Shown here: positions 6,559-57,838 of the stretch, piece by piece
Layout: every line of letters begins with the position of its first letter
How positions within the stretch are numbered: the first letter of the stretch is position 1
NCBI GenBank assembly: GCA_038861395.1
Contig: JAWCDE010000003.1
Coordinates: 3,536-67,535, forward strand
Direction: 5' to 3'
Source: Thermoproteota archaeon
GTDB taxonomy: Archaea; Thermoproteota; EX4484-205; JAAOZP01
Length of the DNA: 64,000 nt
Notes under the pieces: generated by a model
The model's input: only the letters and a program-made list of their open reading frames with translations
The model's database searches: none
Told to the model about the DNA's origin: nothing
Translations under genes and position numbers: made by a program

Positions 6559-7224
6559 TCATGGGCTTTCGATTTTGAATGTAAATATGCATACATCGTC
6601 GCCTTTAGCAACGCATCTTTCTTCCGACAAGGAGATCTTATTCGTCTTTAGAACTTTGCTGATAAAACCTTGGAAGATGCCTCTTACTAACATCTCTAAA
6701 ATTTCATGTAATTGATTATCCTTTGGAAAAGGAATGTTTTTAAACAATATTCTCCCGGAGGAAGTAGCGGGATCGAATTCAGTAAACACTTCTCCAAAAC
6801 CCCTCTCCTTCAAGGCTTTTCTAATAACTATAAAAGCCTCCTCTTTATTGGAAAGCGTTTTTTCATTGGCAATGCTTTGTCCAATTCCAATCCCGGCGTA
6901 GTTTAGAATTATTCCGGAACCAGTTCCAAAAACCCTATTAACCTCGCTTGCTAATCCAGCTATATCGCTTGCCTTAAAAACTATCTTCTTCTCAAACTCT
7001 TTCAAAGATTCTTTAGAGGGAAGCATACTTATGACATCCTCCCTAAGCTTTAATCCGTAATTTAGTATGACTCCCTCATCCATCATCCTTTTCACACGTC
7101 TTTCAACTTCTTCAATAGACACGTCGGCAACGTGAGCAATATCCTCATAAGACGCTTTGGGATTTAAGTTTAATGCTGCAAGTATTTTCAAATCTGTTTC
7201 ATCAAGCGTTGCCAAGGCTTTCAT
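6559..7224 (-). CDS. Lrp/AsnC-type HTH regulator fused to a V4R (4-vinyl reductase-like) ligand-binding domain
   Basis: N-terminal DLKILAALNLNPKASYEDIAHVADVSIEEVERRVKRMMDEGVI (AsnC-type HTH). The C-terminus ends CVAKGDDVCIFTFKI, matching the V4R Cys-x2-KGD-x2-C-x-F signature. Confidence 0.65.
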   Translation of the reverse strand: MKALATLDETDLKILAALNLNPKASYEDIAHVADVSIEEVERRVKRMMDEGVILNYGLKLREDVISMLPSKESLKEFEKKIVFKASDIAGLASEVNRVFGTGSGIILNYAGIGIGQSIANEKTLSNKEEAFIVIRKALKERGFGEVFTEFDPATSSGRILFKNIPFPKDNQLHEILEMLVRGIFQGFISKVLKTNKISLSEERCVAKGDDVCIFTFKIESP

Positions 7225-8444
7225 CCTCCGGTATGAGGCTGCAGCTCTACTACTCTGATTTTATAAAATTCGGCCAGTTCCCTTGCATCTCTTGTAAGCC
7301 TTGGCTTAACTATCAGCGTAGAATCCTTAATCATGTCTGCAACATCATTCCTTTTAGTGTAGAATCTTACTACTGGGGCGACTGTAATACTAGATATGTC
7401 GAAAATGATATCGCATACTATCGGCTTATCTTCACCAAAGACGCCTATGTCGAATTCGTGAGTTATCCCAGAGTTTCCCGTGATTTTAAAATTCTCTTCA
7501 ACCCTTAAACCTATCATTGAAAGGTTTTCTATAAATTGCTTTCTGAAGGCGATACGTTCTTCCTCGTTCTTCTTCATCTCCTGCTCTACAGAAAGAGGCT
7601 TGACAACAACCTCCTCCGGTTGAATCATCCCATTGAACAATTTTTTAAGGGATTGTACAAGCGCATTGCTATTTGTCCAAAGTGCAGTAGCCTCCTTTCT
7701 CTCCATCCTGCTGCTTCCAGGAGGTTTGGTAAACAAGAGGAGTTGCTTGTTGTCGACTATTACAAAATAGGGTGCCGAAAGCCCTGGTGCCGCTACCTCC
7801 ATTATTTCAGCATACTTCTTAAGGTAAGATATTATGCTTGAAGCCCTAGATATTCCGTGAGTGAGTATTTGCACACGAACGTTCTTCCTATTAAGATCTC
7901 TAACTTTGTATAATACTCCAGCATTGTATGCTCTTACGAGGTCTGCTCCAAAGGCTACGATATTAACCTCTTCCTTAGCTCCACTTAACATGTCTGAAAA
8001 CCTAGCATATATCTGCTCCATGCCTTTAAGAAGCTGAAGCTTCTCCCTCTCTTCTAATACTGAGGGTACTTGTACTGTTTTCCAAATTTCTAGTAATTCC
8101 TCCTTACTCTTTTCCATAGCCATAACTTTCCTCCTCTCCGCATCGATCAAAATATCCAGGGCTTTCTCGAAGCCTACCGCAGAAAACTTAGCAGGGCGAT
8201 CTAGACTCGCCTCTATAATACCCTTGTTCTGAAGACTAGTCAAAATATTGTAAACCTCTGTCCTGGAAATTCCCAGTGAACGCCCTATTTCGCTTGCAGT
8301 TATTGGTCCAAGCTTTAGAAGTTGTATGAAGACCTTGGCCTCATTGGGAGTTAAACCATATTCGCCCAGCTCTTCAAAAAGTTTTTCAAAACCTCTTAGA
8401 CTTTTATCAAAAAATGTTTCTCCCTTCTCCATACTGTCTGTCAT
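7221..8444 (-). CDS. TrmB-family transcriptional regulator
   Basis: Winged-helix domain LTPNEAKVFIQLLKLGPITASEIGRSLGISRTEVYNILTSLQNKGIIE followed by a long TrmB-like C-terminal domain. The ORF track extends to 8561; I chose an internal Met (complement of cat at 8442-8444) so it does not overlap the divergent gene. Confidence 0.7.
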   Translation of the reverse strand: MTDSMEKGETFFDKSLRGFEKLFEELGEYGLTPNEAKVFIQLLKLGPITASEIGRSLGISRTEVYNILTSLQNKGIIEASLDRPAKFSAVGFEKALDILIDAERRKVMAMEKSKEELLEIWKTVQVPSVLEEREKLQLLKGMEQIYARFSDMLSGAKEEVNIVAFGADLVRAYNAGVLYKVRDLNRKNVRVQILTHGISRASSIISYLKKYAEIMEVAAPGLSAPYFVIVDNKQLLLFTKPPGSSRMERKEATALWTNSNALVQSLKKLFNGMIQPEEVVVKPLSVEQEMKKNEEERIAFRKQFIENLSMIGLRVEENFKITGNSGITHEFDIGVFGEDKPIVCDIIFDISSITVAPVVRFYTKRNDVADMIKDSTLIVKPRLTRDARELAEFYKIRVVELQPHTGG

Positions 8445-8553
8445 TATTACAACATACTTGTCAGAGTTATTAATTAACTTTTTGGATACGCGTCTAATAT
8501 AGACACGTAGAGTATTTTGGAACTCCATTGAAAAAAGAGCACAAGCCTTAAGT

Positions 8554-9345
8554 ATGAACAATCCCCACCTAGTTAAAATGCTTGGCCTAATCTTGGCCGC
8601 TGGAAAGGGAACTAGGATGCGCCCCTATTCCAATGCAATAAACAAAGAAATGTCATTAATAGGAGAAAGCCCAGTTATAGAGTATAGTGTAAGGGCTCTT
8701 GCAAACGCGGGCGTGAAAAAGGTTTTCATAGTACTCGGGGAGGGGAAGTGGCAAGTACTGGAATATTTGAGGGATGGGAATAGGTTTAACATTTCTATTT
8801 CTTATCTTTATCAAGATATGGGTGAAAAAGGGGAGAACAAAGGCACTGCCAAAGCTATTCAAACAGCTGAAAACTGGATAGAAGAAGATTTTATAGCGAT
8901 CTACGGCGATTCGTTTTTCCATCCTTATGATTTCTTGAAGAGCGAAATCGAGTTCCACTTAAAGGAAGAGGCTGACGTAACCATGGGGGTTTACATGATG
9001 AGGGATCATAAGGATTACGGTGTTGTAGAAGTTAGTAACGATCGGGTTGTAAATATTCTTGAGAAAGCTGCTAAGGAAGATGTTGAGAAGGTTAGAGTAG
9101 ACGACATGTTCGCCGTCAACTCTGGTCCTATAATCTTTACAAAAGAAGTTTTCTACTATATAAAGAAGACGAAGGCTTCCCCTTCAGGAGAATACTGGAT
9201 AACGGATACAATAAAGCTCATGATTGAAGATGGAAAGAAGGTGGTTGCCTATAGGATACCTAAGGAAGTTTTCTGGAGGGACATTGGAAGAATGGAGCAT
9301 AGGATAGAAGCAGAAGCATATCTCTTAAAGAAAATTAACCTTTAA
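8554..9345 (+). CDS. sugar-1-phosphate nucleotidyltransferase (glucose-1-P thymidylyl/uridylyltransferase-like)
   Basis: LILAAGKGTRMRPYS (GxGTRxxP) nucleotidyltransferase signature. The start may be Met9 at 8578. Confidence 0.75.
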   Translation: MNNPHLVKMLGLILAAGKGTRMRPYSNAINKEMSLIGESPVIEYSVRALANAGVKKVFIVLGEGKWQVLEYLRDGNRFNISISYLYQDMGEKGENKGTAKAIQTAENWIEEDFIAIYGDSFFHPYDFLKSEIEFHLKEEADVTMGVYMMRDHKDYGVVEVSNDRVVNILEKAAKEDVEKVRVDDMFAVNSGPIIFTKEVFYYIKKTKASPSGEYWITDTIKLMIEDGKKVVAYRIPKEVFWRDIGRMEHRIEAEAYLLKKINL

Positions 9346-10310
9346 CTCTGGTTTGTCAATGATTTTTCGACAGCATCTTGAATAAGGCTTAAAGCATCTT
9401 TTAGACTAAGATCCGTCTTGAATTGAATACCGCCTATGTTCTCTCTTCCTCCTGCCTCAATTTCTTCTCTTTCTCTAAGCTTTTCGTAAACCTTGTTCAG
9501 ATTAAGGCTTGAACGCGTAGCTATTGTGGCTGACACTGGCTTTCCTTTTCTCAACCCTACGCAAAGGATTACCCCTCTCGTGCTTTCTTCAAGCCTCAGC
9601 ATCAAGACCCTTCTTGCTGCCGATTCTACTTGATCCGTAACATTATAAGTAAAATATGTGATATTGCCGGTAGTCTTTACGGATTCTTTCATCTTTTCAA
9701 TAGCGTCTTCCACAATGCTCCATTTGCTAAGCTCTTTATTAACCCAATTAAAGAGACTGTCCCAATCCATTCTGTATATGGTCAGAGTGAGTTCTTCTCT
9801 AACCTTCTCTTTCATACTGTTTAAGAGGAATGCTTTATTCAAACTATCTGCTATTTCAGATTCTATGTTTCCTGAATCTATTTGATCAATTGCATCTAAC
9901 AATCTTAACCCGTCTTCATCGATTTTAAAATCCTCTTCAAAAACATGATAGACCAGTCTGGAAACGCTCTTAAACCCGCTGTCGAATACTGCTTCATTTA
10001 TTTTTGTCGCACCATTATAAAGCACTATTGAAGGAGAAGACTCGTGATGGTCTATCAGAACGTTATTACCTACGTATGTTAATCCCTTTGTCATGGGAAG
10101 CTCTATTAGTATACTCTTCATTACCCTAAGCGAACTTATTTCGCTATGCTTAGGATACTGTATTCTTGAAATATCGGTTTTTAAAACCCTTGCCAAGATT
10201 GCAGCAGTAAAGATTCCGTCGAGATCAGGGTCGCTCAGTATAGTGTATTCTGGGTGATCTTCTACAAATTGGAAGAGTATTTTCTTTCCCTCTTCGCGTT
10301 CAAAGCTCAA
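9342..10310 (-). CDS. DHH/DHHA1 family phosphoesterase (NrnA-like)
   Basis: Motif I SDPDLDG, motif III LIDHHE (DHH), and a DHHA1-like GGRENIGG near the C-terminus. Confidence 0.7.
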   Translation of the reverse strand: MSFEREEGKKILFQFVEDHPEYTILSDPDLDGIFTAAILARVLKTDISRIQYPKHSEISSLRVMKSILIELPMTKGLTYVGNNVLIDHHESSPSIVLYNGATKINEAVFDSGFKSVSRLVYHVFEEDFKIDEDGLRLLDAIDQIDSGNIESEIADSLNKAFLLNSMKEKVREELTLTIYRMDWDSLFNWVNKELSKWSIVEDAIEKMKESVKTTGNITYFTYNVTDQVESAARRVLMLRLEESTRGVILCVGLRKGKPVSATIATRSSLNLNKVYEKLREREEIEAGGRENIGGIQFKTDLSLKDALSLIQDAVEKSLTNQS

Positions 10311-10447: not shown

Positions 10448-11299
10448 TCAAGATGATTTCAGAACTCCCAGAAGCAAAATTACTATTCCCATAGTTAGAC
10501 AATAGTATGCAAATCTGTAAAAACTTTGTCTGGCTACATACTTTTTCAAAAGCCTTAAAACCAGAATGCTCACTACAGCGGTAATTACAACGCCGAAAAG
10601 AATATCTAAAAATTCCTTTTCAAAGGAAGCATCGTTAATTTTAAAAATGCACCCTCCTGTAATGCTTAAAACGGACAATAAGAGGGAAAACCTATATGCT
10701 TCGTCATGTTCTAAACCTGAGATTAGGGCTGTTGAAACCGTTATTCCCATTCTGGAAACACCGGGTATAATCGCAAACGCCTGTGCGAACCCTATTAGCA
10801 GTGCATTGGACGCGTTTAACTTACTCCTATGCTTAGAATATTTTGTCAAGTATAGGATTATGCCACTGATTAGCATTGCCACACCTGTTGAAAAAAGATT
10901 CGTGAAAATGTTTTCAAGAAAATCCTTCAGCAATAAGCTTAGTATTACAATAGGAATAGTGCCGAGCACTAAGTATTTTAATATCTTCCCTTCACTACTG
11001 GAAAAGTTTAGTTTAAAAAGTGTTTTAAACAGGGAATGTAGATCCTTCCTAGTGAAGAAGACTACCCCTATAAGAGAGCCTGCGTGAAGCACAATATCAA
11101 ACGCAACTGAAACCTTAATGTTAAGCAACTCTTGGAAGAAAACTAAGTGCCCCGAGCTCGAGATGGGAAACCATTCTGTTAAACCTTGGACAATGCTTAG
11201 AAAAAATACTTCAAGAATATTGTGTTGGAAAACGCTACTAATCAATAGATTGGAAACAACGAAGCATGTAATGAGTAGTTGATATCCAATGTTAAGCAT
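10448..11299 (-). CDS. uppP: undecaprenyl/dolichyl-diphosphate phosphatase (UppP/BacA family)
   Basis: GLTEWFPISSSGHLV signature and 8 predicted TM helices. Confidence 0.85.
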   Translation of the reverse strand: MLNIGYQLLITCFVVSNLLISSVFQHNILEVFFLSIVQGLTEWFPISSSGHLVFFQELLNIKVSVAFDIVLHAGSLIGVVFFTRKDLHSLFKTLFKLNFSSSEGKILKYLVLGTIPIVILSLLLKDFLENIFTNLFSTGVAMLISGIILYLTKYSKHRSKLNASNALLIGFAQAFAIIPGVSRMGITVSTALISGLEHDEAYRFSLLLSVLSITGGCIFKINDASFEKEFLDILFGVVITAVVSILVLRLLKKYVARQSFYRFAYYCLTMGIVILLLGVLKSS

Positions 11300-11349: not shown

Positions 11350-11935
11350 TTATTCTATCTGAAACGCTCTCGCAGGATTGTTCTTAATAATCGTATTTAC
11401 GAGGTCTTGATTAAACCCCTGTTTTTGCATTAGTGGAAGGAAACTTTTTACAAGATACTCGTAGCCTCTAATAATTCCACCACGAGCCTGGCCTATAGAA
11501 TACCACCCAGAGTCTTGAGATAATAGCAATTGATTTTCAAAACCGTGTTCAACCATAGTTTTAATTAGCTTTAAAGTCTTATCGGCAGTTTCGCTGACCT
11601 ATACGATCATATTCTATCCATGCCCCTCTTCTAGCAGCATTTCAAACGGCATTTTAAATTTTCTTCAGAATCCACATGGACAAATATCAACCTACTACCC
11701 CTTCCCTTCTTCAAGAATATCAAGCACAAGCATTGCTGTCTTGCCGCTTTCCATGTGGCATGCTATGACAACCCCCGTGGAGAGGATGCGGCGAGCAGCA
11801 GCTTTTATTGTTTTCTCATAAACAGGTCTTATTTCTCCAGGCTCTACAGCAATTTTAACGTAACCTGCTTTAACCCATATAATCTAGCATCTACAACCTG
11901 CTGTATTTAAGGTGTTTATCATAATCATTTTAACA
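11350..11935 (-). pseudogene. decayed phosphotriesterase-like lactonase / PHP (PTE family) gene, N-terminal half missing, multiple frame breaks
   Basis: The C-terminal ORF reads ...LLLSQDSGWYSIGQARGGIIRGYEYLVKSFLPLMQKQGFNQDLVNTIIKNNPARAF (PTE C-terminal pattern). Upstream out-of-frame fragments read AGYVKIAVEPGEIRPVYEKTIKAAARRILSTGVVIACHMESGKTAMLVLDILEEGKG and LIFVHVD, matching the PTE central region. They are separated by stops and frame changes. Confidence 0.6.
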
Positions 11936-11936
11936 A

Positions 11937-14900
11937 CTAGAGGTTTTCCACGAATTTTCTTGCAGGAAACTCGTGTATATTGCCTTGAGGATCTATAGTC
12001 ACGATGTTCTTATCCAGTCGGATCGCGGCTAGCAGGAGTGCTGAGCTTAAGATTCCGTCATCAGAATCCAGGCAAACAGCATCAACAGACCTAATACTTT
12101 CACAAAGCTTATCGGCAAGTATACTTATATCTCCAAAGTCGAGTCTTCTAACTTCAATAGTCGGGGGCCATACCCCCTCAGACCTAAGTCTCCTACGAAG
12201 TACCTTTAACTTGTCTCCCAACTCCTTCCTTGAATACGCTACCAGAAGCTGGGGGCGATATTTTTTAATAATATTAAAAGCATTTTCCACGGATTCTCCG
12301 ATTGCCATAGCTAAACTAAACTTTAAGGCAGACCATTCCAAGACCAGTTTCCTAACGTGCGTCACAACTTCGTGAACATTTGTCTCAATCAAGGATGCGT
12401 ATACAGATTTTGGCGACGTATACACATACACTGCATAATCCTCAATATCTTTTCTTACTTCAATTGTAGTATGGGCGTTGAACGGCCTGTTCCCTCCCCT
12501 ACCATAATTGAAGCTTATAAGATATGATATGTTACCGTTTTCATCAATTTTCTCTTCACGTTTAACCTCTGATATCACAAGCTCTATTGCAGTACTGCTT
12601 TGGGGAAGTCTTTCGTAAAGATAATTGATGAACATTTCAACTTTCTCCAAAGGAATCCTAAGAGGAACTCGTACTTTCCAAGTTTCTCCGCGGACGGCTT
12701 TTTCTTCAATCTTCCATTTTCTTAAAAGAGATGGCGTTGTTATTCTTGCAGCCTTTAGAGCAGGAGGTACTGAAGCAAATATGGCGGTCAATGACGCGAT
12801 TGTTATTAGGGAAAGCATGTCGATAGGAGAAGTCTTTACGTTAACGGGGAGAACGATATTCAGAATATCCAGTAATCTGAACATGATCATGCTCAATATG
12901 TAGCCGATTCCGCCCCCTATGAAGCCTAATACGCCTGCTTCAACAATGAAAAGACTGGAGATGTGGGTAGGGTTCAAACCGACTGATGAGAACACGAATA
13001 TTTCGTTTCTCCTCTCGTAAATCAGAGTATAGAACATTATTGCGATGTTCAATACCGTTATTGTTATTGGAAAGACTATTAGGGTGCCAAAGATTTCTAC
13101 GTAGCCTCCTCTAAAGTAATATGTCAAGCTTTCGGAACTGGGCAGGGTTGCTACAAAGTAGCCTCCCAAGGACGCTAAGCGTTTAGAAGCCTCTCTTGCT
13201 TGCATATTATTGTTAAACAGACAGTAGACTGCAGAAATACTCCCACCAAGTTTTTTAGAAGTTTGCACGTTCGCAATCAGAAGGTTGTTTCCTGGAACTG
13301 GTTGAGCCCCCGATTGCGAGCCGGGGGGAACATAGAAAGGCGAGAACTCGCTGCCATCAGGTTCCTTTATTTCCCTAATCAAATCACCATCAAATATGCC
13401 TACTACTGCTAGTCTTAACCCTTTGAAATATATTACATTGCCAACTTCTATCCCCAGGCTTTTTGCTAAATGCTTGCTTACAAGCACAGTATTGCTACTG
13501 TTGAAAAGCCTATCCATCGAGTTCTCTGGGTATGTAATGCCTTTAATAAAATGAAAAGAGGGATCGCCCACCGATATGCTCCTAATACCGTATATAGGCA
13601 CTCCATCTACGTAGTCTATGGCACCATATGCTATTGGGCTCACCACCTTGTAATCTAGTGACAATATCTCTTTCTGCGACCCTATGAAAATTAAATCCTC
13701 AGAAGTGAGAAACTCTGACGGCCTACTTACAATAGACATGGGCGGTTTATCCGATGGACATGTTTTCGCAACCGTAAGCGTATTTGTCGCGAGAGATGCT
13801 CTCATTGAGGTTAATGTCGACATTGCAATAGCCATCGTTATTATGGAAATCAGTGTTAACAAGGTTCTAAGCCTTCTTCTCTTTAGATTTCCGATAGAGT
13901 ATGATATCGCAATTGTTAATGCAGGTATTAATGAAACGCCTTTCTCACTCTTTACTTCTCCAAGGAAATAGGGCACTAGGAAAACCGCGAGTATTATGAA
14001 CATCGCTAAATATACTCCAATCATGAGTTCTTGAATGGGGGTCTTCGAAAAACCTGGAAAAGTATGGTAGGATGTGGTCATAAGTATTAAGAAACTGATT
14101 ATTGTAAACGTTGCGTATTGCTCTTTTTTCTCAATAAATATTGCGCCAATTGCTAAGGATAAAGCTACGACTATTGTGAAAACGAGAATCGCATTAGTAT
14201 AGGCTTCTCTCAAAATCCTTTGAATACTTCTGGTTACTTCCTCTCCGGTTACAATAGCTTCTTGTTGATAAGACAATATCTTAAGAGGGTTTGAAGAATT
14301 CAGGGCTTCCGCTCCTAAGGTAATTATCTGATTCAGCCTATAGGCTTCTAAGCCTATGTAAAACCCTAGGCTTCTTGCTTCTTCCACCATCTTCATAGCC
14401 AATTCTATAGTCTTGTTAACAAAAGGCTGGTTTGATCTAGCTTGGGTAAGAGCTGGCTGATCCAGATTGGTTTCACTATTTCTATACAGTTTAACCGGTT
14501 GTTCAACACTACCTATCTCAACCACATTTCTCTTACCCTCTATAGACGTGGAAACCAATAGATGTAACGGGGTATCAGCTGGAACCACTACAATATTTCC
14601 AGTGATGTTTAAAAGATTAAGAAGCGATAGGTTTTCTGAAGAATATTCGAGTATTAACCGTTCCTGAGTTTTATTAAGCATAAGGATTCTTGTCTCTTGA
14701 AGAGGTATTTTCAACGTAGAAATAGAAGGAACGGCTGCTAGAACTCTTGCAACGGCACCGGGACATAGTGTAATCGTAATGTTTCTCTTCTCTCCTAAGG
14801 ATAGTCTTCCTACGGAAATCTTTTGAGGAACATACATTTCTCTCTTGTTTAAGGACGGGCCCACTATTGTTATTTCAGCATTAGACGGTACTCCTACGAT

Positions 14901-17294
14901 TGTTTCATCTAACGCTTTAATGAAAAAATAACTCTCGTTTACAAATATTAGGAAAAACTGAGGTTCCCTAGGCTTCGGATTTAACGATATTCTTAATATG
15001 GAGGCAGGTTTAACGATGAACTGCTTAGAATTATTATCTATCATCCTCCCATCAATAAAATCTAACCTTGTTGAAACCTCAAGCACATGCTCAGTATCCG
15101 TGTAATAAGGTGCTTCAAAAACATATTTTTCGACAAGAATAGCACCGGAGGATAGAGACGGTAATTTTAATTCTACTTTTCTTTCATATAAAATCTTATT
15201 GAAGGTTAAATCCTTTATAGTCCAGTTCAGAACAACACTCAAAGGATCTTCAAAAGCGTCGTTTACGACCCAAAGACTAACCCTTACCGTAGCCCCAGGG
15301 TTAAAACATAAAGATGTAAGATTACTGTAGTAGTCGCCATCTACAAATATTATAACATGCACAGGATTGAACGCATTCTTTATCTCATTATACGTATTCT
15401 TTCTGACCCCGTAGTAATCTATTATCGAGCCACTAGCCTGAGGAAAGTAGTCTGTGAGCGGGAAGATGCTCACTCCCATCGAATAATTATTCTTAAGCAT
15501 CCTAGCCCTATCTATCGAGTGTCTTAAAACAACCGATTGATATTTTTGACTGAGATCTACCAGGCTAAATAAGTCATCAGGCCCTGTTAAACTAGTTGGA
15601 ATAGCTCCGTTGAAACCCTTGTCCTTAAAAGTTTGAGCAACTTGCCAAAGATACGATATTGTCGCATTACTCCAGAAAGGCGAGTTTAAACTGGGGAGTC
15701 CAATTGGACTAATTATATTCGGGAAGGTGCTTCTATACGAGATATAGCCTGTCCAACTGCCAGTACCCCAGCCGTAGTCAAGATACTCATCATAATCTCC
15801 AGAATAGGGTAGGACTATGATGTTCCTATTCAGGTCTTTAGCCAGAGTGCTCAGCTCATAATCTAAGTAAAGGTTGACCCCGTAGCCATAATACGGCGAT
15901 TTCTCGTTAAGCCAACCGGGTAAAGTATGGGGGCAGATAATTACTATCGAAGGATAATTGTATGTTAGCAATATCATTTCAATAAGCTGCTTCTTGACAG
16001 AGTCGGAGTATTTTTTAAAGCGGTCTAGAGCAGGGTAAGACCCTATCAGTGGAAAATCCAATTGAACAAGTAAGCCTTCTACGGATGTCGATTCATAAAA
16101 CTCTTTGGGCTCAACATGTGCGAAAGACCTTAAGAAGTTGACATTCGCATCCTTTAGAAGTCTTACAGTTTCAAACGTTTTCCGAGTTTCTAGCATCGGG
16201 CCGATTCTGGAAAAATATGCTCCTCCTCTTAGAAAAATGCTAGCGCCGTTAACTTTAATATACGACTTTTCCCTTGAAAAACCTCCTTCTAAAAATCTTA
16301 TTCCAAAAATGGTTTTGATAGAACCGGCGTACTGGTTATTTTGATATAGGCTAATATTGGCAAGATAAACAGCAGGGTCTCCAACATCCCATGGGAACCA
16401 GTAGGCGGGATCAGGTATTGAGGCCTCTAGCGTCCTCCATCCTGTTTCCTTCGGAGAAAGCCTTATTCTAAAGGATTGTTCTATTTCCGGTATACTGCTT
16501 GAGTTCAACCTCTTTATCCTCAGCCTTATGTTCAGATTTTCTTCAAAATCTTCTTTATTTTGAACCAAGATTCTGAACTTAACTAAAGCTGGATTTGAAT
16601 ACTTTTCCACATCAACTAGAACAAGATTTACGACAGGGCCCGTGGTTCCAACAAGCACGATATCTCTCCACACTCCGGTGAAAGCATCACGCATGTTTGG
16701 AAACACTTCTGAGAAAGAGTATGCCCCCGCTGGATATATTCTGGATTCGAAGGAACCTTGAATGGGAGATTCTATATGCATTGTTAAAACATTGTTTCCC
16801 TCCCTGTTGATAGCGTCATCCACATCGAAGAAAAAGGGGGAGAAGTAACTTGCGTGCTCTCCCAAATATATCCCATTAAGCCATACTTTTACAATACCCC
16901 AAACCCCGGAGAAAACGATCCTCAGCTTTTGACTCTTCATTCCAATAGGCACTTTAAACGATGTTCTAATCCATATGGAATTGTTTAAACTCGTTGCTTT
17001 AAGTAAGAAAGGTACGTTAATTTTACTCCATGAACTATCGTTGAAAAGAGTGCTATAATAAATGTTAATGTTTCCATTTTTAAAGGAGTCAACCTTGTAT
17101 CTGAATTCTCCGACAAGCCTTTCTCTAGAAAAATAGAAGTAATCAAAAGGTGAAAAATGTTGAGCAACTTCGTTCAAAAAGTTTTCATAAGGTTCTTTAG
17201 AGAAGGTTCTTAAAGCAGGCATGACCAAGGCGGCCAGTAAAATCGATATTGAAACTAGGGTTAGTGGAATTTCAATGCTTCTCTTCAACACCAT
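11937..17294 (-). CDS. giant membrane protein: N-terminal signal anchor, GH2-like (beta-mannosidase/galactosidase-like) ectodomain, FtsX/MacB-type permease TM module, C-terminal cytoplasmic domain of unknown function
   Basis: WIRTSFKVP...LRIVFSGVWGIVKVWLNGIYLGEHASYFSPFFFDVDDAINREGNNVLTMHIE matches the GH2 N-terminal sugar-binding domain. VNFLRSFAHVEPKEFYESTSVEGLLVQLDFPL matches the start of the GH2 TIM barrel. Later, LRTLLTLISIITMAIAMSTLTSMRASL and NEIFVFSSVGLNPTHISSLFIVEAGVLGFIGGGIGYILSMIMFRLL are FtsX-domain signatures. The final ~400 aa have no Walker motifs. Confidence 0.65.
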   Translation of the reverse strand: MVLKRSIEIPLTLVSISILLAALVMPALRTFSKEPYENFLNEVAQHFSPFDYFYFSRERLVGEFRYKVDSFKNGNINIYYSTLFNDSSWSKINVPFLLKATSLNNSIWIRTSFKVPIGMKSQKLRIVFSGVWGIVKVWLNGIYLGEHASYFSPFFFDVDDAINREGNNVLTMHIESPIQGSFESRIYPAGAYSFSEVFPNMRDAFTGVWRDIVLVGTTGPVVNLVLVDVEKYSNPALVKFRILVQNKEDFEENLNIRLRIKRLNSSSIPEIEQSFRIRLSPKETGWRTLEASIPDPAYWFPWDVGDPAVYLANISLYQNNQYAGSIKTIFGIRFLEGGFSREKSYIKVNGASIFLRGGAYFSRIGPMLETRKTFETVRLLKDANVNFLRSFAHVEPKEFYESTSVEGLLVQLDFPLIGSYPALDRFKKYSDSVKKQLIEMILLTYNYPSIVIICPHTLPGWLNEKSPYYGYGVNLYLDYELSTLAKDLNRNIIVLPYSGDYDEYLDYGWGTGSWTGYISYRSTFPNIISPIGLPSLNSPFWSNATISYLWQVAQTFKDKGFNGAIPTSLTGPDDLFSLVDLSQKYQSVVLRHSIDRARMLKNNYSMGVSIFPLTDYFPQASGSIIDYYGVRKNTYNEIKNAFNPVHVIIFVDGDYYSNLTSLCFNPGATVRVSLWVVNDAFEDPLSVVLNWTIKDLTFNKILYERKVELKLPSLSSGAILVEKYVFEAPYYTDTEHVLEVSTRLDFIDGRMIDNNSKQFIVKPASILRISLNPKPREPQFFLIFVNESYFFIKALDETIVGVPSNAEITIVGPSLNKREMYVPQKISVGRLSLGEKRNITITLCPGAVARVLAAVPSISTLKIPLQETRILMLNKTQERLILEYSSENLSLLNLLNITGNIVVVPADTPLHLLVSTSIEGKRNVVEIGSVEQPVKLYRNSETNLDQPALTQARSNQPFVNKTIELAMKMVEEARSLGFYIGLEAYRLNQIITLGAEALNSSNPLKILSYQQEAIVTGEEVTRSIQRILREAYTNAILVFTIVVALSLAIGAIFIEKKEQYATFTIISFLILMTTSYHTFPGFSKTPIQELMIGVYLAMFIILAVFLVPYFLGEVKSEKGVSLIPALTIAISYSIGNLKRRRLRTLLTLISIITMAIAMSTLTSMRASLATNTLTVAKTCPSDKPPMSIVSRPSEFLTSEDLIFIGSQKEILSLDYKVVSPIAYGAIDYVDGVPIYGIRSISVGDPSFHFIKGITYPENSMDRLFNSSNTVLVSKHLAKSLGIEVGNVIYFKGLRLAVVGIFDGDLIREIKEPDGSEFSPFYVPPGSQSGAQPVPGNNLLIANVQTSKKLGGSISAVYCLFNNNMQAREASKRLASLGGYFVATLPSSESLTYYFRGGYVEIFGTLIVFPITITVLNIAIMFYTLIYERRNEIFVFSSVGLNPTHISSLFIVEAGVLGFIGGGIGYILSMIMFRLLDILNIVLPVNVKTSPIDMLSLITIASLTAIFASVPPALKAARITTPSLLRKWKIEEKAVRGETWKVRVPLRIPLEKVEMFINYLYERLPQSSTAIELVISEVKREEKIDENGNISYLISFNYGRGGNRPFNAHTTIEVRKDIEDYAVYVYTSPKSVYASLIETNVHEVVTHVRKLVLEWSALKFSLAMAIGESVENAFNIIKKYRPQLLVAYSRKELGDKLKVLRRRLRSEGVWPPTIEVRRLDFGDISILADKLCESIRSVDAVCLDSDDGILSSALLLAAIRLDKNIVTIDPQGNIHEFPARKFVENL

Positions 17295-17397: not shown

Positions 17398-19746
17398 ATG
17401 GTTGAAAAGCTGCCTAGAATAATTGGAAAAGTAATGAAGGACAATTTTCATTTCCTCTCTTTGATAATTCTACTTATTTACACATTTTTATCTATAAAAA
17501 CCATATTCCTGGAAGGCATGATTCCTGGTGGCGATAATCCCGTACATTATGTTCATTCCTATCTTACAGCAGTATACATGCTTCCAAAACTAGATATTTT
17601 AGGTTGGGATCCGTTTAATCAATTCGGCTGGGTTTTCAACCAGTATTACAACCCCGGCATGAATATTTTCGTTTCCTTCGTATACTACTTGTTCTTAGGA
17701 TTATTAGATTTTCAGGCGGCATATAAAATTGCTTTTTTCCTCACCTATTTTCTGATGGCTCCTGCAGTCTTTATATTCGTATACGCTTTGACAAGTGACA
17801 AAATTGCTACCGTAATCGCTTCCCTCCTTTCCATCACTACATTTGTAGAAGAGAAAGAATGGCTTGATGCAGGATTGAAGCAGATGTATTACATAGGCAT
17901 GGTGCCAGAGAGGCTTGGTTTAATTTTTGCATTCTTCAGCATAGCTTTGCTGATTTACAATTTTAAGTCAAGGTCTTTAAGAGAAACACTGTTCCTAACA
18001 GGAGTTTGCTCTTTATTCTTTTCAATAACAGTATTAACTCATGTAATGATGGGGGTTTTCGCAGCATGTGTAGCAATTCTCATCTGTTTTTTCACTTCAA
18101 TCGAGCTAGTGTTAAGTACTTTCAAAGATTCCGGAAAACAAAGTCTTAAACCCATCCTAAAGAAGGGAGGGTTCCACTTCTTAAAACTTGCTTCAGTAGG
18201 CATGCTTTCCCTAGGGATGACTCTTTTCTGGATAATCCCGTTGTTTCAGACTTTAGATAAATATCACAGTTTCCCAGCGATTACATGGGCATGGGGACCA
18301 TCTGTTCTTCAAGAGATCTTTACTAGCATGCCTTGGTACTTATTAATATTCTACAGTATTGGTGCATTCTCGCCAGTTCTAGCAGAAGAAAAACCCTCCT
18401 TCTCATCCTTAGCCTCATGTAGTACCATACTCATATTACAATTCGTCAGCTTGGTTAATCTTTATGATGGCAATGTTGGGCTGAGACTCATCCTTGCCTT
18501 TATTACGTCGCTAGTGCTTTTCCTCTCGTCTAAAAACTATTCCATATCCTTTTTACTGGCTTCAATATCTATTTTCAGCTTTCTTGCAACAGGCCCAGAA
18601 ACTTATCTTGTATATTTCGGTCCAGTGAAATTAGACCTTCTCAGTATAATTCCCTTTGCTAGAAACTTCGGCTATTCCAAGTTCAGCGCCCCAAGTAGAA
18701 TGCTGATACTTTGTCTATCAGCAATTGGTTTCTCAAGCCTCTCTAGGAAACTATATTCATTATCCGGTAGAATGAAAAAGTTTTCAACGATTCCAATGGT
18801 GTTAGCAGGATTATTAGCTTTCCTAATAATAAACGCTTCCATAACTGCTCAAGCGCAGACTACTGACTTCTACTACCCTTGGTCTAGAGAAAAGGTGTTT
18901 AAGCTGACTTCAGACCACGCGGGCTTCAGCAAGATAAATGCACTTATCAGCTGGGTTAAGAATAACGTACCAGAAAATACTTACACACTGCTTCAAGACA
19001 CGTTGGATTTTGATAAGAATGGGATCCTAGAGAACTCCCACTATGTTTATACGGCATCCCTAATGCTTAAGCCTGTTGTAGGAGGGTGTTTCGGAACCAA
19101 TTATATAACTAATCCATACGCTAATTCTGAAGGCGACTACCTTTTGGGTTTTAAGAAAGATGAATTGTTAAAGGATAGAAGCATCATTCCAAGGCTTATG
19201 GATGAGCTTGGAATAGGGTATATTGCACTACACGACCCCTTATTAATTAACGCTTTAAACTCTTCCAGTGATTTTAGACTTGAATACTACGATGGATTAT
19301 ATGCAGTTTTCAGTAAAAACCCGCTTTCAAAAATAGTTTCTATCGAAGGCGAGGGTACAGTAGAATCTGTTAATTTCACAATAAGCAGGATCGAAGTAAT
19401 CGTATCCGGTGTCTCTGGCAACGAATCCAGCCTGATAATCAGACAAGTAAACTTTCCGGGTTTCACAGCGATTGTTAATAATGAAACTATTCAATTAGAC
19501 ACGTATTACCCTAATATACCTAGTGTGATAGTCAGTTGGCAGGATTATGTTCCAACAGTATACAATTTGAGAATCCCATTCATTAAAATTAGGCTTCCAC
19601 CAGGCTCTAATAAAGTGATACTGGTCTTTAAAATCCAAACTATAGGAAGCACTGTCTCTCAAGTTGCTTGGCTAATATTCTTACTATTAATAATTCTAGG
19701 CACAGTTATGGAAATTATACAGCGGTTTAAGAAGAAATGGAATTAA
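17398..19746 (+). CDS. polytopic membrane protein (>=13 TM) with C-terminal extracytoplasmic domain; GT-C-fold glycosyltransferase-like architecture
   Basis: 782 aa with many hydrophobic helices, then a ~280-aa soluble domain and a final TM (VAWLIFLLLIILGTVMEII). Its stop overlaps the start of the UbiA-family gene. Function is inferred from architecture only. Confidence 0.45.
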   Translation: MVEKLPRIIGKVMKDNFHFLSLIILLIYTFLSIKTIFLEGMIPGGDNPVHYVHSYLTAVYMLPKLDILGWDPFNQFGWVFNQYYNPGMNIFVSFVYYLFLGLLDFQAAYKIAFFLTYFLMAPAVFIFVYALTSDKIATVIASLLSITTFVEEKEWLDAGLKQMYYIGMVPERLGLIFAFFSIALLIYNFKSRSLRETLFLTGVCSLFFSITVLTHVMMGVFAACVAILICFFTSIELVLSTFKDSGKQSLKPILKKGGFHFLKLASVGMLSLGMTLFWIIPLFQTLDKYHSFPAITWAWGPSVLQEIFTSMPWYLLIFYSIGAFSPVLAEEKPSFSSLASCSTILILQFVSLVNLYDGNVGLRLILAFITSLVLFLSSKNYSISFLLASISIFSFLATGPETYLVYFGPVKLDLLSIIPFARNFGYSKFSAPSRMLILCLSAIGFSSLSRKLYSLSGRMKKFSTIPMVLAGLLAFLIINASITAQAQTTDFYYPWSREKVFKLTSDHAGFSKINALISWVKNNVPENTYTLLQDTLDFDKNGILENSHYVYTASLMLKPVVGGCFGTNYITNPYANSEGDYLLGFKKDELLKDRSIIPRLMDELGIGYIALHDPLLINALNSSSDFRLEYYDGLYAVFSKNPLSKIVSIEGEGTVESVNFTISRIEVIVSGVSGNESSLIIRQVNFPGFTAIVNNETIQLDTYYPNIPSVIVSWQDYVPTVYNLRIPFIKIRLPPGSNKVILVFKIQTIGSTVSQVAWLIFLLLIILGTVMEIIQRFKKKWN

Positions 19747-20603
19747 AATATTACTTAATAGAGCTTAGAGTTCAAGAATCATATAAAAACCTGCTAATAC
19801 TTTTAGCACCATTCTTCAGTAAGAAGCTTCTAGATCTTAATTACTATCAAAACCTCCTGCTGGGTTTTGCAGCACTCTTCTTAAACTCCAGCGCCTGTTA
19901 CATATTTAACGATATTAAAGATGCAGGCTTTGATGCCTTCCATCCTCGAAAGAAGAATCGGCCTATTGCAAGCGGCAAGATAAGGAAGTCTTCAGCATTA
20001 TTATTCTCTGTAATGCTTTTAGTATTTTCGTTATTAATCTCCTACTGGATAGGGACCAGTTTCTTGTTACTCTGCCTACTGTTATTTCTGAACTCGGCTG
20101 CATATTCTTTTCTCTTGAGAAACATAGTCTGGCTTGACCTTATCAGCATATCTTTAAACTATGTTTTCAGAACTTTAGCAGGATGCTATTTGGTCGATGT
20201 AGTTCTCTCACCTTGGTTATTAATGGGAGTTTTCTATATTTCTATGCTTCTTGCATTAGTTAAGAGAAGAGAGGAAATAATTATTCTAGACAGACCTGAG
20301 CTTCATCGGAAAACTCTTAAACACTACTCTATAAGCATCATAGATCAAGCTATCACAATACTCTCGACGCTCATATTAATATCCTACTCACTTTATACTC
20401 TTCACTCCCCATACTCTAATAATCTTTTACCATTCACGATTCCACTCGTAACTTTAATAATCCTAAAGTTTATATTTGTTTTGAAGAGCAGTAGAGGAAA
20501 TAATATGATTATAAGGAAGGTATTAACTGACAACATCATAGCAATAAGCTTATTTACATGGCTTGTTGTAACGACTTATTTAATATACTTCAACCAATGT
20601 TAA
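19737..20603 (+). CDS. UbiA-family prenyl-phosphate phosphoribosyltransferase-like protein (decaprenyl-phosphate phosphoribosyltransferase / DPPR synthase subgroup)
   Basis: YIFNDIKDAGFDAFHPRKKNRPIASGKI contains the ND-x2-D-x3-D plus HP-x-K-x2-RPIAsG pattern of DPPR synthases. The protein is 288 aa with about 8 TM helices and a KRREE segment after TM5, as in Rv3806c-type enzymes. Confidence 0.6.
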   Translation: MELKYYLIELRVQESYKNLLILLAPFFSKKLLDLNYYQNLLLGFAALFLNSSACYIFNDIKDAGFDAFHPRKKNRPIASGKIRKSSALLFSVMLLVFSLLISYWIGTSFLLLCLLLFLNSAAYSFLLRNIVWLDLISISLNYVFRTLAGCYLVDVVLSPWLLMGVFYISMLLALVKRREEIIILDRPELHRKTLKHYSISIIDQAITILSTLILISYSLYTLHSPYSNNLLPFTIPLVTLIILKFIFVLKSSRGNNMIIRKVLTDNIIAISLFTWLVVTTYLIYFNQC

Positions 20604-20688: not shown

Positions 20689-22899
20689 CTACTTCTTGCG
20701 TCTCAGAAGTATTGCTACTACAATCACTATGATAATTATTACTACTACTATTGCGATGATCATTTCTGTTGAGATTCCGGGTGTTGGGGTTGGTGTTGGT
20801 GTTGGAGTTGGCGTAGGTGTTGGTGTGGGTGTTGGTGTTGGAGTTGGTGTTGGAGTTGGTGCAACGCCTGCAGGCTTTAATCTTCTTACGTATTCACGTA
20901 CGTGAGCCTGTGTACTTCCACAGTATGGGCCTGCTGGCAGTAGCGGCTTGTCCTCGTTGGGCCATCCCTCCCAGTATTTCGTGCTGTAGATGTACCAGTT
21001 GGGGTGTCCTCCCTCAGGTATTATCGGAAGCTCTTCGAGGATGATCTCCTGTATGCGCTGAGCAATTCTCCGTCTTTCTGCACCTGTCGCAGTATCAAGG
21101 CTTTCGATGAGCTCTATGAGTTCTGGGTTGACGTAGCTGCCGTAGTGGTTCCAGCAGCCGGAGTATGTTCCGACGAACATCTGCGTGTAGCGCTCATACA
21201 TGTCGTTGTTTATGCCGGCGTGCATGCAGTAGTCTGCGAAGTCGTAGGTGTTGGCATCCATCGCACCAGTGTAACCACCCCAGTCCTTGAAGTCAATGGT
21301 CATAGGTATGCCGAGGTTCCTGCTGACGGACTCTGCCACGGCAAGGTCTATGGCGTTAACGTCAGTCCATCCTACGATATCCATAATGGCCCAAGTGCCA
21401 ATGTCAGATTCGCCGAGCTTCACGTTCACACCAGGCTGGTCGGGAAGCTGGTCCGCGATTGTGAAGCCGTTGGCAAGCCACCATGAAGCCTTCTTCTTAA
21501 CCTTACCGACTACAAGGTCGATATCACCATAGTAGTCCATCATCCTCCTTACCCAATCCATGCTCGGACCATCCTTAGTATACCAGGAATCGCCGACCTT
21601 AATGCAGTGCTCGCTTAATATTGCTATTGCCTGAGCCGCATACTGATACATGTTCTTGCCACTGTAAGTCCCGTACTTCAAGATGTATTCTCTCTCAAGA
21701 GTTGAGTTCACAAGCTCCCTTGCTGCAGCATCCGTCCACGGTAACAGCAATGGGCTAGGATCGAACAGGTACCCCGCGGAAGCGAGGTTAACCTTCTCAT
21801 AGTCTATAACCATGGTTATAGCCTTGCGCAGCCATGGTTCGCATAATGGATACTTTCTATGGTTCGGAACTAGCAGGAGTGTGCTGCTCTCAGGGAAGTA
21901 CGGCGGGTTCTTGAAGTAGGTGTGTAGGAATCCTGGTTTCTGCCACACGTCCGGGGGCACGTAGTTGCCGTCCCAGTCTATCATGCCGGCTTGGAGGTCG
22001 GCGTAAATGGCTTCGTTGCTACCGTAGTAGTTTCCACCCCTGTATCCGAAGAAGTCTGGAGCTGGTTCTCCAAGGACGTTCTTGCCCCACCAGAGCGGGT
22101 TCTTCTTCATGATCGTGTAGGCTTTCCTAACAGGGTCGTGGTACCATGGGAGGTACATTCCTGAGGCTACTCTCCACTCCGCTGGGAAGTCTGGCTTAGC
22201 CCAGTCGTTCGTGAAAGCATTGATGTTATCCCATGAGCCGGCGTAAACTTCCTCCCAAACGTCCTTGGGCAGTATGGGGTAGGCGCGAGTCAGGGTGCGC
22301 CATACTACCGAGCTGTACCTGTACTCATCCTTCAGATGGACTATGAAAGTCCTCTCGTCGACTATCTCGAACTCCCTCATCCTGGTCTTAAGGCCACCCA
22401 TGTAGTATGCTGAAGGAGGAGAGTCTGGGAACGCCCCGTATAGGAAGAAGCTGTACTTAACGTCCTCGGTGGTTATCGGCCTGTACTGCTCTATACCAGC
22501 GGTGCTCACCTCAGTGGTGCCACTCCAAGCACTCCAATCAGTTATCTTAACCCAGTATATGCCGCTTCTCAAAGTAACCTTTACCCCAAGCCCATCGTTT
22601 ATCCACTCAATGCTCTCGCCAAGCTCCTTTATCAACTGGCCGCTTGCAGCATCAACACCGAACATAGGCTCGTACATCAGCACGACATCCCAGCCGCAAG
22701 CACCCTCAAGCTGAGTAACAGGGTTGAAGTTTGACTCGTCAGGCCAATAGCCGCAGCCCCAGACGATCTTGTTCCTTGGGATTTCTCGCTGAGCGCTTGT
22801 CAGCGGAACACCTGCGGGAAGGACTATTGCCAGAAGAAGAACGACAGCAACAGGCAGCGTTTTTATAAAGGAATGTTCTTCCTTACCCATCTTTATCAC
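20689..22899 (-). CDS. ABC transporter substrate-binding protein, family 5 (oligopeptide/dipeptide type), C-terminally anchored by a (TP)15 linker and TM helix
   Basis: Family 5 substrate-binding fold, N-terminal signal peptide, and a C-terminus of PAGVAPTPTPTPTPTPTPTPTPTPTPTPTPTPGISTEMIIAIVVVIIIIVIVVAILLRRKK. This is the last gene of the Opp-like operon. Confidence 0.85.
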   Translation of the reverse strand: MIKMGKEEHSFIKTLPVAVVLLLAIVLPAGVPLTSAQREIPRNKIVWGCGYWPDESNFNPVTQLEGACGWDVVLMYEPMFGVDAASGQLIKELGESIEWINDGLGVKVTLRSGIYWVKITDWSAWSGTTEVSTAGIEQYRPITTEDVKYSFFLYGAFPDSPPSAYYMGGLKTRMREFEIVDERTFIVHLKDEYRYSSVVWRTLTRAYPILPKDVWEEVYAGSWDNINAFTNDWAKPDFPAEWRVASGMYLPWYHDPVRKAYTIMKKNPLWWGKNVLGEPAPDFFGYRGGNYYGSNEAIYADLQAGMIDWDGNYVPPDVWQKPGFLHTYFKNPPYFPESSTLLLVPNHRKYPLCEPWLRKAITMVIDYEKVNLASAGYLFDPSPLLLPWTDAAARELVNSTLEREYILKYGTYSGKNMYQYAAQAIAILSEHCIKVGDSWYTKDGPSMDWVRRMMDYYGDIDLVVGKVKKKASWWLANGFTIADQLPDQPGVNVKLGESDIGTWAIMDIVGWTDVNAIDLAVAESVSRNLGIPMTIDFKDWGGYTGAMDANTYDFADYCMHAGINNDMYERYTQMFVGTYSGCWNHYGSYVNPELIELIESLDTATGAERRRIAQRIQEIILEELPIIPEGGHPNWYIYSTKYWEGWPNEDKPLLPAGPYCGSTQAHVREYVRRLKPAGVAPTPTPTPTPTPTPTPTPTPTPTPTPTPGISTEMIIAIVVVIIIIVIVVAILLRRKK
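20776..20866. repeat. hexanucleotide microsatellite (GGTGTT/GGAGTT)n, about 15 units, encoding the Thr-Pro linker of the substrate-binding protein
   Basis: The plus strand reads gtgttggggttggtgttggtgttggagttggcgtaggtgttggtgtgggtgttggtgttggagttggtgttggagttggt, and the minus strand encodes (TP)n. Confidence 0.9.
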
Positions 22900-22920
22900 C
22901 TTTTACAGTCTTAAATGAAT

Positions 22921-23015
22921 TATAGGTATTTAAAAAGTTTTCTGAATACCAATATAAAAACAGTAATTTCTTCCGAATACTGATACAAAAACATTAATTT
23001 CGGTACCTAAAAGGT
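22921..23015 (-). promoter_or_regulatory. promoter region of the substrate-binding protein gene, with TATA-like box and two tandem 31-bp direct repeats (candidate activator sites)
   Basis: The complement of 22925-22935 gives TTTTTAAATA (TATA-like), about 25-35 bp upstream of the ATG at 22899. Units TTCTGAATACCAATATAAAAACAGTAATTTC (22940-22970) and TTCCGAATACTGATACAAAAACATTAATTTC (22971-23001) are directly abutting, flanked by AGGTATTT on both sides. Confidence 0.5.
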
Positions 23016-23059
23016 ATTTTGCCAGAAATTCAGATGTTTAACAGAAAATGAGTCTATTT

Positions 23060-24858: not shown

Positions 24859-24864
24859 TTTCCA

Positions 24865-41081: not shown

Positions 41082-41084
41082 GTG

Positions 41085-45427: not shown

Positions 45428-45614
45428 AGTAGAAGACGAAAAAACTTTGAATAAAAAGATTTTAGGATTAAAACTAACATCCGAAAAAGGTTTATACTGA
45501 TGTTGAGCAGGAACTTATTGTCTCTCCTAGTCTTGATGCGAATAATTGTTAAAAAGATTGTTAGCCTGCTCCTGAAAGCAGAAGTTTTATATTTTTAAAA
45601 CAAGAAGAAGCAGC

Positions 45615-46616: not shown

Positions 46617-46643
46617 CTGGAGGCTATTATTTTTAGTTAAATT

Positions 46644-57830: not shown

Positions 57831-57838
57831 TGGAAAAA

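Follow-up and report, generated by a model that had tools for sequence, protein, structure and literature searches.

The 64-kb window analysed here (the whole stretch of 64,000 nucleotides from contig JAWCDE010000003.1 of a Thermoproteota archaeon) carries on its minus strand an uninterrupted open reading frame (ORF) of 1785 codons, the product of which joins a glycoside hydrolase family 2 (GH2)-like ectodomain to an FtsX/MacB-type permease module and a two-domain cytoplasmic tail (Table 1). The fusion of ectodomain and permease, claimed earlier from the nucleotide letters alone (hereafter the original prediction), is borne out by Pfam, by alignments with PDB sequences and by the orthologues. 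A deposited, 100% identical twin exists as MEM2641269.1, an 'FtsX-like permease family protein' of a Thermoproteota metagenome-assembled genome, and its 90% cluster has Candidatus Brockarchaeota entries among the members; the protein is not discussed in the Brockarchaeota paper (PMC8065059).

Altogether 26 orthologues with 37–100% identity were found in independent samples (JGI, ENA, NCBI, Logan), 21 of them being full-length and five truncated at one end. In their alignment the column identity is 0.58–0.81 in each block of 50 residues, i.e. the conservation is uniform from end to end, the best-conserved segments being the one preceding the first transmembrane (TM) helix of the FtsX module (residues 1101–1150) and the one spanning TM2, the coupling helix CH1 and TM3 (residues 1401–1450). 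The unusual length is the sole pointer to an assembly chimera of separate genes, which the original prediction had named as a way in which it could fail, or to a fused pseudogene. Both are excluded by the orthologues, which share one architecture across independent samples and assemblers, by the uniform conservation and by the absence of in-frame stops from all 1785 codons; further members of 1715–2091 residues with the identical architecture also stand against them.

Table 1 Features of the fusion gene and of its neighbours (positions are those of the window; residues are those of the 1785-residue protein)
Feature	Position	Strand	Residues	Basis or remark
Whole ORF	11937-17294	minus	1785 aa	uninterrupted, ATG start
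Hydrophobic N-terminal segment	17220-17276	minus	7-25	signal anchor or signal peptide; hydropathy scan
GH2 beta-mannosidase-like region	15351-17099	minus	~66-648	Pfam, NCBIfam, PDB alignments
Acid/base replacement 'CPHTLPGW'	15912-15935	minus	454-461	alignments
Nucleophile replacement FPNIISPIGLPS	15690-15725	minus	524-535	alignments
Two beta-sandwich domains (GH2 domains 4 and 5)	14679-15362	minus	645-872	
Small alpha/beta domain and helical stalk	14190-14639	minus	886-1035	AlphaFold2 secondary structure
Three extra TM helices ahead of the FtsX module	13962-14189	minus	1036-1111	hydropathy scan, AlphaFold2
FtsX TM1, 'KRRRLR' just before it	13812-13874	minus	1141-1161	hydropathy scan, AlphaFold2
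MacB-like periplasmic core domain	13095-13808	minus	1163-1400	
FtsX TM2-TM4, including CH1 'YERRNEI...GLNPTH' and post-TM4 'TPSLLRKW'	12738-13085	minus	1404-1519	
CTD1, alpha+beta, KA1/BamC-N/Bet v1-like topology	12324-12707	minus	~1530-1657	common to the whole FtsX-CTD family
CTD2, CARF-fold, six-stranded, Rossmann-like	11940-12323	minus	1658-1785	
ManC-like nucleotidyltransferase	1918-2904	minus		
GT4 glycosyltransferase	4957-6096	minus		
TrmB regulator	7221-8561	minus		
Sugar nucleotidyltransferase	8554-9345	plus		
DHH-motif protein	9342-10310	minus	322 aa	syntenic downstream of BacA
Intact BacA/UppP polyprenyl-diphosphate phosphatase	10448-11299	minus		conserved downstream partner
Phosphotriesterase-homology (PHP/PTE) relic	11350-11556	minus	68 codons	C-terminal ~65 aa; 1bf6, E 2.4e-6
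Polytopic membrane protein	17398-19746	plus	782 aa	no family match
UbiA-family enzyme	19737-20603	plus		nearest decaprenyl-phosphate phosphoribosyltransferase; NF008977 E 1.7e-56, PDB 8j8j E 3.8e-23
Opp/Dpp-type importer operon	20689-26813	minus		

The GH2-like ectodomain

The β-mannosidase-like region is composed of a sugar-binding β-sandwich, an Ig-like domain and a TIM-barrel-like domain, and together with the two β-sandwich domains that follow it presents the architecture of family GH2—sugar-binding β-sandwich, Ig-like domain, (β/α)8 barrel and C-terminal β-sandwich. The Pfam families Glyco_hydro_2_N and N2 (residues 102–179) and the Ig domain Glyco_hydro_2 (residues 233–333) are both matched above their cut-offs, the GH2 models of NCBIfam yield E-values from 1e-15 to 5e-23, and in the PDB sequence search the solved β-mannosidases (5n6u, 2je8/7op6) align to residues 105–648 with E-values from 1e-17 to 5e-19.

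Concerning the catalytic machinery, three types of alignment were used: pairwise phmmer comparisons with the β-mannosidases BtMan2A and DtMan, the addition of these two references to the family alignment by MAFFT, and an L-INS-i alignment including distant members of the family. The position of the acid/base glutamate is occupied by L458, within 'ICPHTLPGW' (residues 453–461) versus 'WCGNNE' in BtMan2A and 'IHNEPPW' in intact relatives. The nucleophile motif, 'SEFGFQS' in BtMan2A and FPTEFGAQSLPS in the intact relatives (for which it is also given as 'EFGAQSLPS'), is replaced by FPNIISPIGLPS, where the glutamate falls on I527 in some alignments and on P530 in others (local sequence 'IISPIG'); positions 527–533 hold neither aspartate nor glutamate in any of the 26 orthologues. 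The substrate-site motif 'GWDWG', i.e. the WDW sugar site, has become 'SEVFP'. All three elements are replaced in 26/26 orthologues by motifs that are themselves nearly invariant. The divergence of the catalytic glutamates noticed in the original prediction has therefore been confirmed; its acid/base region was the correct one, whereas 'PYSGDYDEY', taken there for the second motif, is not the region of the nucleophile.

Five members of a sister clade—P0060, P0063, P0067, P0074 and P0079, with 1777–2069 residues, all retrieved with the profile of the CTD2 domain of the tail—keep both 'NE' and 'EFG' (in 'HNEPPW' and 'EFGAQS'). In a neighbour-joining tree based on the FtsX and CTD1 core, the catalytically dead sequences (the window protein, P0024 and P0053) form a monophyletic clade, sister to the intact one; it thus appears that a membrane-integrated ancestral glycosidase lost its catalysis once. 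Since both catalytic glutamates are lost throughout the clade, the GH2 domain is, judged from the alignments, a conserved pseudo-glycosidase under strong purifying selection.

The membrane module and the cytoplasmic tail

In the AlphaFold2 model of residues 640–1530 (pLDDT 84.7, pTM 0.69) the small α/β domain (residues 886–944) is succeeded by a helical stalk (residues 946–1035) that is continuous with the first of the three extra TM helices, the second and third ones covering residues 1057–1078 and 1087–1111 and being followed by an amphipathic helix. Eight TM segments are predicted in total; as the topology from the ectodomain to TM1 needs an odd number of helices, the three predicted there are consistent with it. 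The module itself exhibits the four-TM FtsX fold, with long TM1 and TM2 and with CH1 between TM2 and TM3 (TM2, residues 1404–1427; coupling helix, 1429–1437; TM3, 1442–1477; TM4, 1490–1519). The Pfam family FtsX covers residues 1405–1518 with an E-value of 1.4e-13, and residues 1401–1521 align to LolC and MacB in the PDB sequence search. The Pfam family MacB_PCD (residues 1149–1302) scores 23.3 bits, slightly under its cut-off of 27, and reaches 35.5 and 36.4 bits in the relatives P0060 and P0071, respectively, matches to it being recorded for several orthologues as well; the extracytoplasmic domain modelled between TM1 and TM2 is of the mixed α/β type and corresponds to the core domain (porter plus SABRE) of this fold. 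Invariant in the family are E, R and E of 'ERRxEI' in CH1, the subsequent G and P of 'GLNP', and the Pro-Ser pair past TM4 (consensus 'TPSLLRRWK'). The closest structural matches—YtrEF, FtsEX, MacB, LolCDE and HrtBA—are all ATPase-dependent.

The tail (residues 1520–1785) starts immediately past TM4. It has no match in Pfam with E-values up to 10, the Pfam CARF families included, and none among the PDB sequences, and was recognised by structure comparison and PADLOC-DB only; in an AlphaFold2 model (pLDDT 82.7) it consists of two domains, CTD1 and CTD2. The second has six strands with a β5-β6 hairpin, and the Foldseek search of the tail ranks Csa3 and Can2 at the top, Cam1 also being among the structural matches. 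CARF domains have been defined in the literature and described as dimeric ligand sensors controlling a fused output (PMC4012209), and the modelled CTD2 conforms to this fold. A candidate for the polar serine or threonine ending strand 1 is S1668 within 'GES', which is partly conserved, being near-invariant in the close set and the majority residue in 50 non-redundant sequences of the family (50–80%). The basic residue after strand 4, in the motif [DN]X[ST]XXX[RK], is absent from CTD2, the loop being acidic ('CLDSDDG', within 'C-L-D-S-D-D-G-I-L-S'); the conserved residues are C1741 and, farther along, K1762.

The layout in the original prediction thus needs some revision. The hydrophobic N-terminal segment, taken there for a signal anchor, is present and may also be a signal peptide; FtsX helices do flank the extracytoplasmic loop on both sides, but three more precede TM1, and the loop has ~240 residues rather than ~300. 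The cytoplasmic domain, expected to be of ~400 residues and to lack Walker motifs, has ~266 and consists of the KA1-like and CARF-fold domains, with neither Walker A nor the ABC signature motif anywhere in the ORF. This tail, the decisive element that the original prediction lacked, recasts the mechanistic picture: what looked like an orphan permease becomes a membrane device coupled to a sensor.

Family membership and gene neighbourhood

The protein matches the PADLOC-DB profile PDLC01990, 'CARF_m8--CARF_Beta-galactosidase_LolE_TM', over its whole length (residues 7–1782 versus profile positions 6–1787 of 1791; 1201 bits) and PDLC01991, 'CARF_m8--CARF_LolE_TM', over residues 962–1772 (573 bits). 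The end-to-end match corroborates the CARF assignment and means that this architecture was in a catalogue beforehand. The CARF_m8 names presumably come from the naming scheme for minor families in the 2020 CARF census by Makarova et al. Neither CARF_m8 nor CARF together with FtsX is mentioned in the literature searched, which did not include that census, and the supplementary files to the 2025 CRISPR classification mention neither of them. The architecture is therefore catalogued and functionally uncharacterised, the window protein joining an existing family rather than introducing a novel type of system. Four points seem to be novel: a loss of catalysis that happened once, long ago, in the Brockarchaeota clade; the synteny with BacA; the KA1-like CTD1 as a constant partner of this FtsX lineage; and the consistent absence of ATPase and CRISPR neighbours.

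The CTD2 profile retrieved just 56 proteins from 1.84 billion cluster representatives, with the match always C-terminal; the long ones are of ~1050–1146, 1715–1818 and 2069–2091 residues, the remainder being shorter proteins or fragments. Among seven long members scanned with Pfam, FtsX was found in all seven, the ectodomain being GH2 in three, CarboxypepD_reg in one and unrecognised in three. The constant unit of the family is the core formed by FtsX and CTD1, variants of which carry a DUF5005/DUF4185 ectodomain (P0045) or lack CTD2 (P0028, P0045-P0048). Wherever a source is named, it is an uncultivated archaeon (Brockarchaeota/Thermoproteota, Bathyarchaeia, Nitrososphaerota or Hermodarchaeia), and the FtsX fold together with the cytoplasmic domains is conserved across Thermoproteota and Asgard lineages. 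Archaeal proteins of ~411–421 residues (P0139-P0141, loci L013 and L014) match TM2-TM4 and CTD1 alone, have no adjacent ATPase either, and may represent a minimal form of the FtsX-CTD1 lineage. At three other loci—L003 (13896-20576) and L010 (1065-7912), both with GH2-FtsX-CARF proteins, and L006 (5736-12520, P0043), with a CarboxypepD_reg-FtsX-CARF protein—the gene belongs to a recurrent three-gene module with a DUF6785 polytopic membrane protein (in L006 and L010 also PF20580) and a second FtsX-family giant of 1526–1550 residues; this module is absent from the window.

In the clade of the window protein the gene is positioned directly upstream of BacA/UppP, overlapping it by 38 nucleotides at the P0013 locus and being separated from it by 17 nucleotides at the P0021 locus. 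In the window the gap amounts to 637 nucleotides and holds the phosphotriesterase relic, seen in this genome only; the decayed neighbour of the original prediction is thus real, with the intact BacA/UppP lying beyond it. The pair of a ~780-residue protein and the UbiA-family enzyme is present at the P0013 locus and absent from the P0021 one, whereas BacA is kept at both, which makes BacA the robust partner. The surroundings show conserved synteny of housekeeping genes for sugars and lipid carriers (BacA, NTP-transferase, TrmB, GT4 and GAPDH).

As to the other neighbours, the divergent GT-C/UbiA pair of the original prediction holds in its UbiA half: this enzyme, similar to decaprenyl-phosphate phosphoribosyltransferase (DPPR synthase), suggests a pathway for a polyprenyl-phospho-pentose donor in the archaeon. 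The 782-residue protein has no match in Pfam, NCBIfam, PDB or PADLOC, and the label GT-C is not endorsed for it, ~12 predicted TM helices and an extracytoplasmic C-terminal domain being the whole of its basis; the C-terminal part is β-rich and ends in an anchor, and the gene overlaps that of the UbiA-family enzyme. The pair occurs at the loci L001 and L002 and not at L004 and L005. The DHH-motif protein, 316–321 residues long at L001 and L004, bears motifs like those of DHH phosphoesterases (DPDLDG, DHH and GG..GG), although its Pfam DHH match stays below the threshold and PDB yields none; a connection with the ligand of the CARF-like domain, should the protein be a nucleotide phosphodiesterase, is pure speculation.

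The ABC ATPases of the window are two of the Opp/Dpp type, within the importer operon, and one of the UgpC/MalK type (57716-58942), none being MacB-type. The former were rejected as partners because of their oligo_HPY domains and their complete Opp/Dpp importer operon, and the latter as a component of a sugar importer that includes SBP_bac_1. The absence of an adjacent ABC ATPase partner, claimed in the original prediction, has been borne out in the window and extended to 11 other family loci: within flanks of 4–10 kb around the 12 genes (the window, P0013, P0021, P0024, P0043, P0045, P0046, P0048, P0060, P0067, P0130 and P0139) no ATPase of the MacB/LolD/FtsE type was found, fused or in the same operon, the only ABC_tran genes nearby being Opp/Dpp importers (window, L004) and an ABC-2 pair (L008). 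Likewise, neither cas genes nor CRISPR arrays were found in the window or at 14 related loci, a repeat scan included, and no association with cas10 or a type III locus was seen there.

Elsewhere in the window, a pair of an AbiEi-like antitoxin and an AbiEii-like nucleotidyltransferase toxin (type IV toxin-antitoxin/abortive infection) is located at 29557-30817 on the minus strand. A cluster of genes for secreted proteins at 39795-48026 encodes a Peptidase_C25 (gingipain-like) protein of 1189 residues with MG2, a CarboxypepD_reg/Big-domain protein, a GH12 and a serpin; the segment at 40–44 kb has a GC content of 0.50 versus ~0.39 elsewhere and may have been horizontally acquired. A (GGTGTT)n-type repeat with a period of 12 nucleotides (20768-20863), within the 3' portion of the minus-strand gene for SBP_bac_5, probably encodes a low-complexity linker ahead of a C-terminal anchor. 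Scans for Rfam families and tRNAs in the window were empty.

Proposed role and comparison with known systems

Judged from the sequence, the most reasonable reading is still the one of the original prediction, in which an FtsX-type transducer is coupled to a surface module that binds carbohydrate; the part in sensing or remodelling envelope glycans suggested there is hypothetical. Proteins with the MacB/FtsX fold form dimers in which conformational changes are passed between the periplasmic domain and the cytoplasmic side, no substrate being conducted (PMC8277102), and CARF dimers sense ligands (PMC4012209); by analogy with both, the protein is proposed to be an allosteric coupler of the FtsX fold devoid of a nucleotide-binding domain (NBD), linking a ligand sensor in the cytoplasm with a module that binds glycans at the surface, with a rough probability of 0.4. 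It would act as a homodimer, the conformational change being relayed along the long stalk helices TM1 and TM2 and no substrate being moved across the membrane. In place of the NBD dimer, CTD1 and CTD2 would exert the regulation, CTD1 sitting beneath the coupling helices; a small ligand, possibly nucleotide-derived, would bind the CARF-like domain and thereby change the state of the module at the surface, which would bind, and no longer cleave, an envelope glycan of the β-mannoside type or an N-glycan. The tight operon link with BacA/UppP points to a role in the polyprenyl-diphosphate-linked glycan cycle, i.e. in the assembly and recycling of N-glycans or envelope glycans, rather than in nutrient uptake or defence. 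A bolder version, which we hold to be rather doubtful, would make the protein a second-messenger-gated, ATPase-free MacB/FtsX machine, in which the CARF dimer closes on a cytoplasmic small molecule and, via CTD1 and the coupling helices, switches the conformation of the surface glycosidase in the sister clade or of the pseudo-glycosidase in the clade of the window protein, CARF then serving the housekeeping of envelope glycans and of the polyprenyl-diphosphate cycle instead of CRISPR defence.

Several observations weigh against the coupler. The acidic 'CLDSDDG' loop without the CARF basic residue argues against a cyclic oligoadenylate as the ligand; the lineage P0020-22 has lost CTD2 and retained the rest of the protein as well as the link with BacA, so that the CARF-like domain seems to be dispensable for the core function; and the −1 sugar subsite is so heavily remodelled that even carbohydrate binding is uncertain. 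Moreover, CH1 is as conserved as in the ATPase-dependent relatives, which an unlinked ATPase would explain equally well, and the search for such an ATPase covered the contig neighbourhoods rather than whole genomes.

These last points lead to the main rival, possible if somewhat unlikely: a conventional type VII ABC permease driven by an ATPase of the MacB/LolD/FtsE kind whose gene lies at another place in the genome, with an accessory, regulatory role for the tail and with the GH2-like ectodomain as a cis-fused counterpart of the bacterial hydrolase partners controlled by FtsEX. The invariance of 'ERRxEI...GxNP' and of the segment past TM4, as in ATPase-coupled relatives, and the exclusively ATPase-dependent structural matches would suit it, as would the scope of the inspection just mentioned; it is opposed by the count of such ATPases, zero among the 12 family loci, and by CTD1 following TM4 directly in every member, on the very side of the membrane, the cytoplasmic one, on which an NBD would be contacted by CH1 and CH2. 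A static envelope or surface protein, with the FtsX module and the tail as an anchor and the pseudo-GH2 as a lectin, adhesin or scaffold without signalling, is unlikely: it would accommodate a strongly conserved ectodomain that has lost catalysis, the interchangeable ectodomains of the family (CarboxypepD_reg, DUF5005/DUF4185, GH2) and the dispensability of CTD2 in one lineage, yet the strongest conservation lies at the pre-TM1 and TM2-CH1-TM3 segments, and an anchor needs no eight-helix FtsX fold with a core domain and two conserved cytoplasmic domains.

A type III CRISPR ancillary effector, in which a cyclic oligoadenylate made by Cas10 binds CARF and triggers a toxic or abortive membrane module, is suggested by the CARF fold, by the distribution of the family profile in a database of defence systems and by the membrane CARF effectors known, such as Cam1, which is among the structural matches; it is rendered distinctly improbable by the lack of cas genes and CRISPR arrays at all the loci inspected, by the housekeeping synteny of the gene, by the missing basic motif with its acidic loop, and by the CTD2 profile matching no canonical Cas-associated CARF protein. 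Still less could the protein be an active membrane-anchored exo-glycosidase, a β-mannosidase or β-galactosidase for the use of extracellular polysaccharides. The GH2 homology across five domains, the two catalytic glutamates kept in the sister clade and the many extracellular carbohydrate-active enzymes of Brockarchaeota (PMC8065059) speak for it, but with both glutamates and the WDW motif replaced in every orthologue, the alignments largely refute it for the clade of the window protein.

If the allosteric coupler is the correct reading, the MacB/FtsX fold would need no ATP hydrolysis to act as a transmembrane allosteric coupler, an extracytoplasmic domain would be under the control of a CARF-type sensor outside the CRISPR context, and the protein would be an archaeal, cis-fused analogue of the control of hydrolases by bacterial FtsEX. 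The intact clade and the monophyletic dead clade offer a natural experiment on the way from a glycosidase to a binding module, and the link with BacA/UppP points to an unstudied step of the lipid-linked glycan cycle in archaea. Since the architecture is in a catalogue already, the value lies in its characterisation rather than discovery; it is nevertheless striking and testable.

Compared with known systems, the protein shares with the type VII ABC systems MacB, LolCDE and FtsEX the four-TM FtsX fold and, inserted between TM1 and TM2, the periplasmic core domain; unlike them, it has no NBD, fused or adjacent, and possesses three extra TM helices, an N-terminal ectodomain of ~1000 residues and the KA1-like and CARF-like tail past TM4, and it is restricted to archaea. 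Bacterial FtsEX controls extracytoplasmic hydrolases; in the window protein a hydrolase-derived domain forms part of the polypeptide itself. The ADOP 'orphan' duplicated FtsX permeases (TIGR03434), the members of which typically have no adjacent ATPase gene, are FtsX-domain proteins too, matched weakly (31.5 bits versus a cut-off of 622), but they are bacterial, have two FtsX domains and lack both GH2 and CARF-like domains. With the GH2 β-mannosidases (BtMan2A, 2je8/7op6; DtMan, 5n6u) the ectodomain has in common the five-domain architecture, domains 4 and 5 being superposable, and it differs from them in lacking both catalytic glutamates and 'GWDWG' and in being membrane-integrated. In contrast to the CARF sensors Csa3, Can2/Card1, Crn1, Csm6 and Cam1, CTD2 has no basic motif, carries the loop 'DSDDG' and finds no Pfam or PDB sequence match, the output domain being extracytoplasmic and the gene lying outside any CRISPR-Cas neighbourhood. 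The closest relationship is that with PDLC01990, which likewise combines GH2 ('beta-galactosidase'), the LolE/FtsX TM module and CARF and of which the window protein is a member without structural difference; to this catalogue entry, which gives no function, the present analysis adds the loss of catalysis, the synteny with BacA, the KA1-like CTD1 and the separation from CRISPR.

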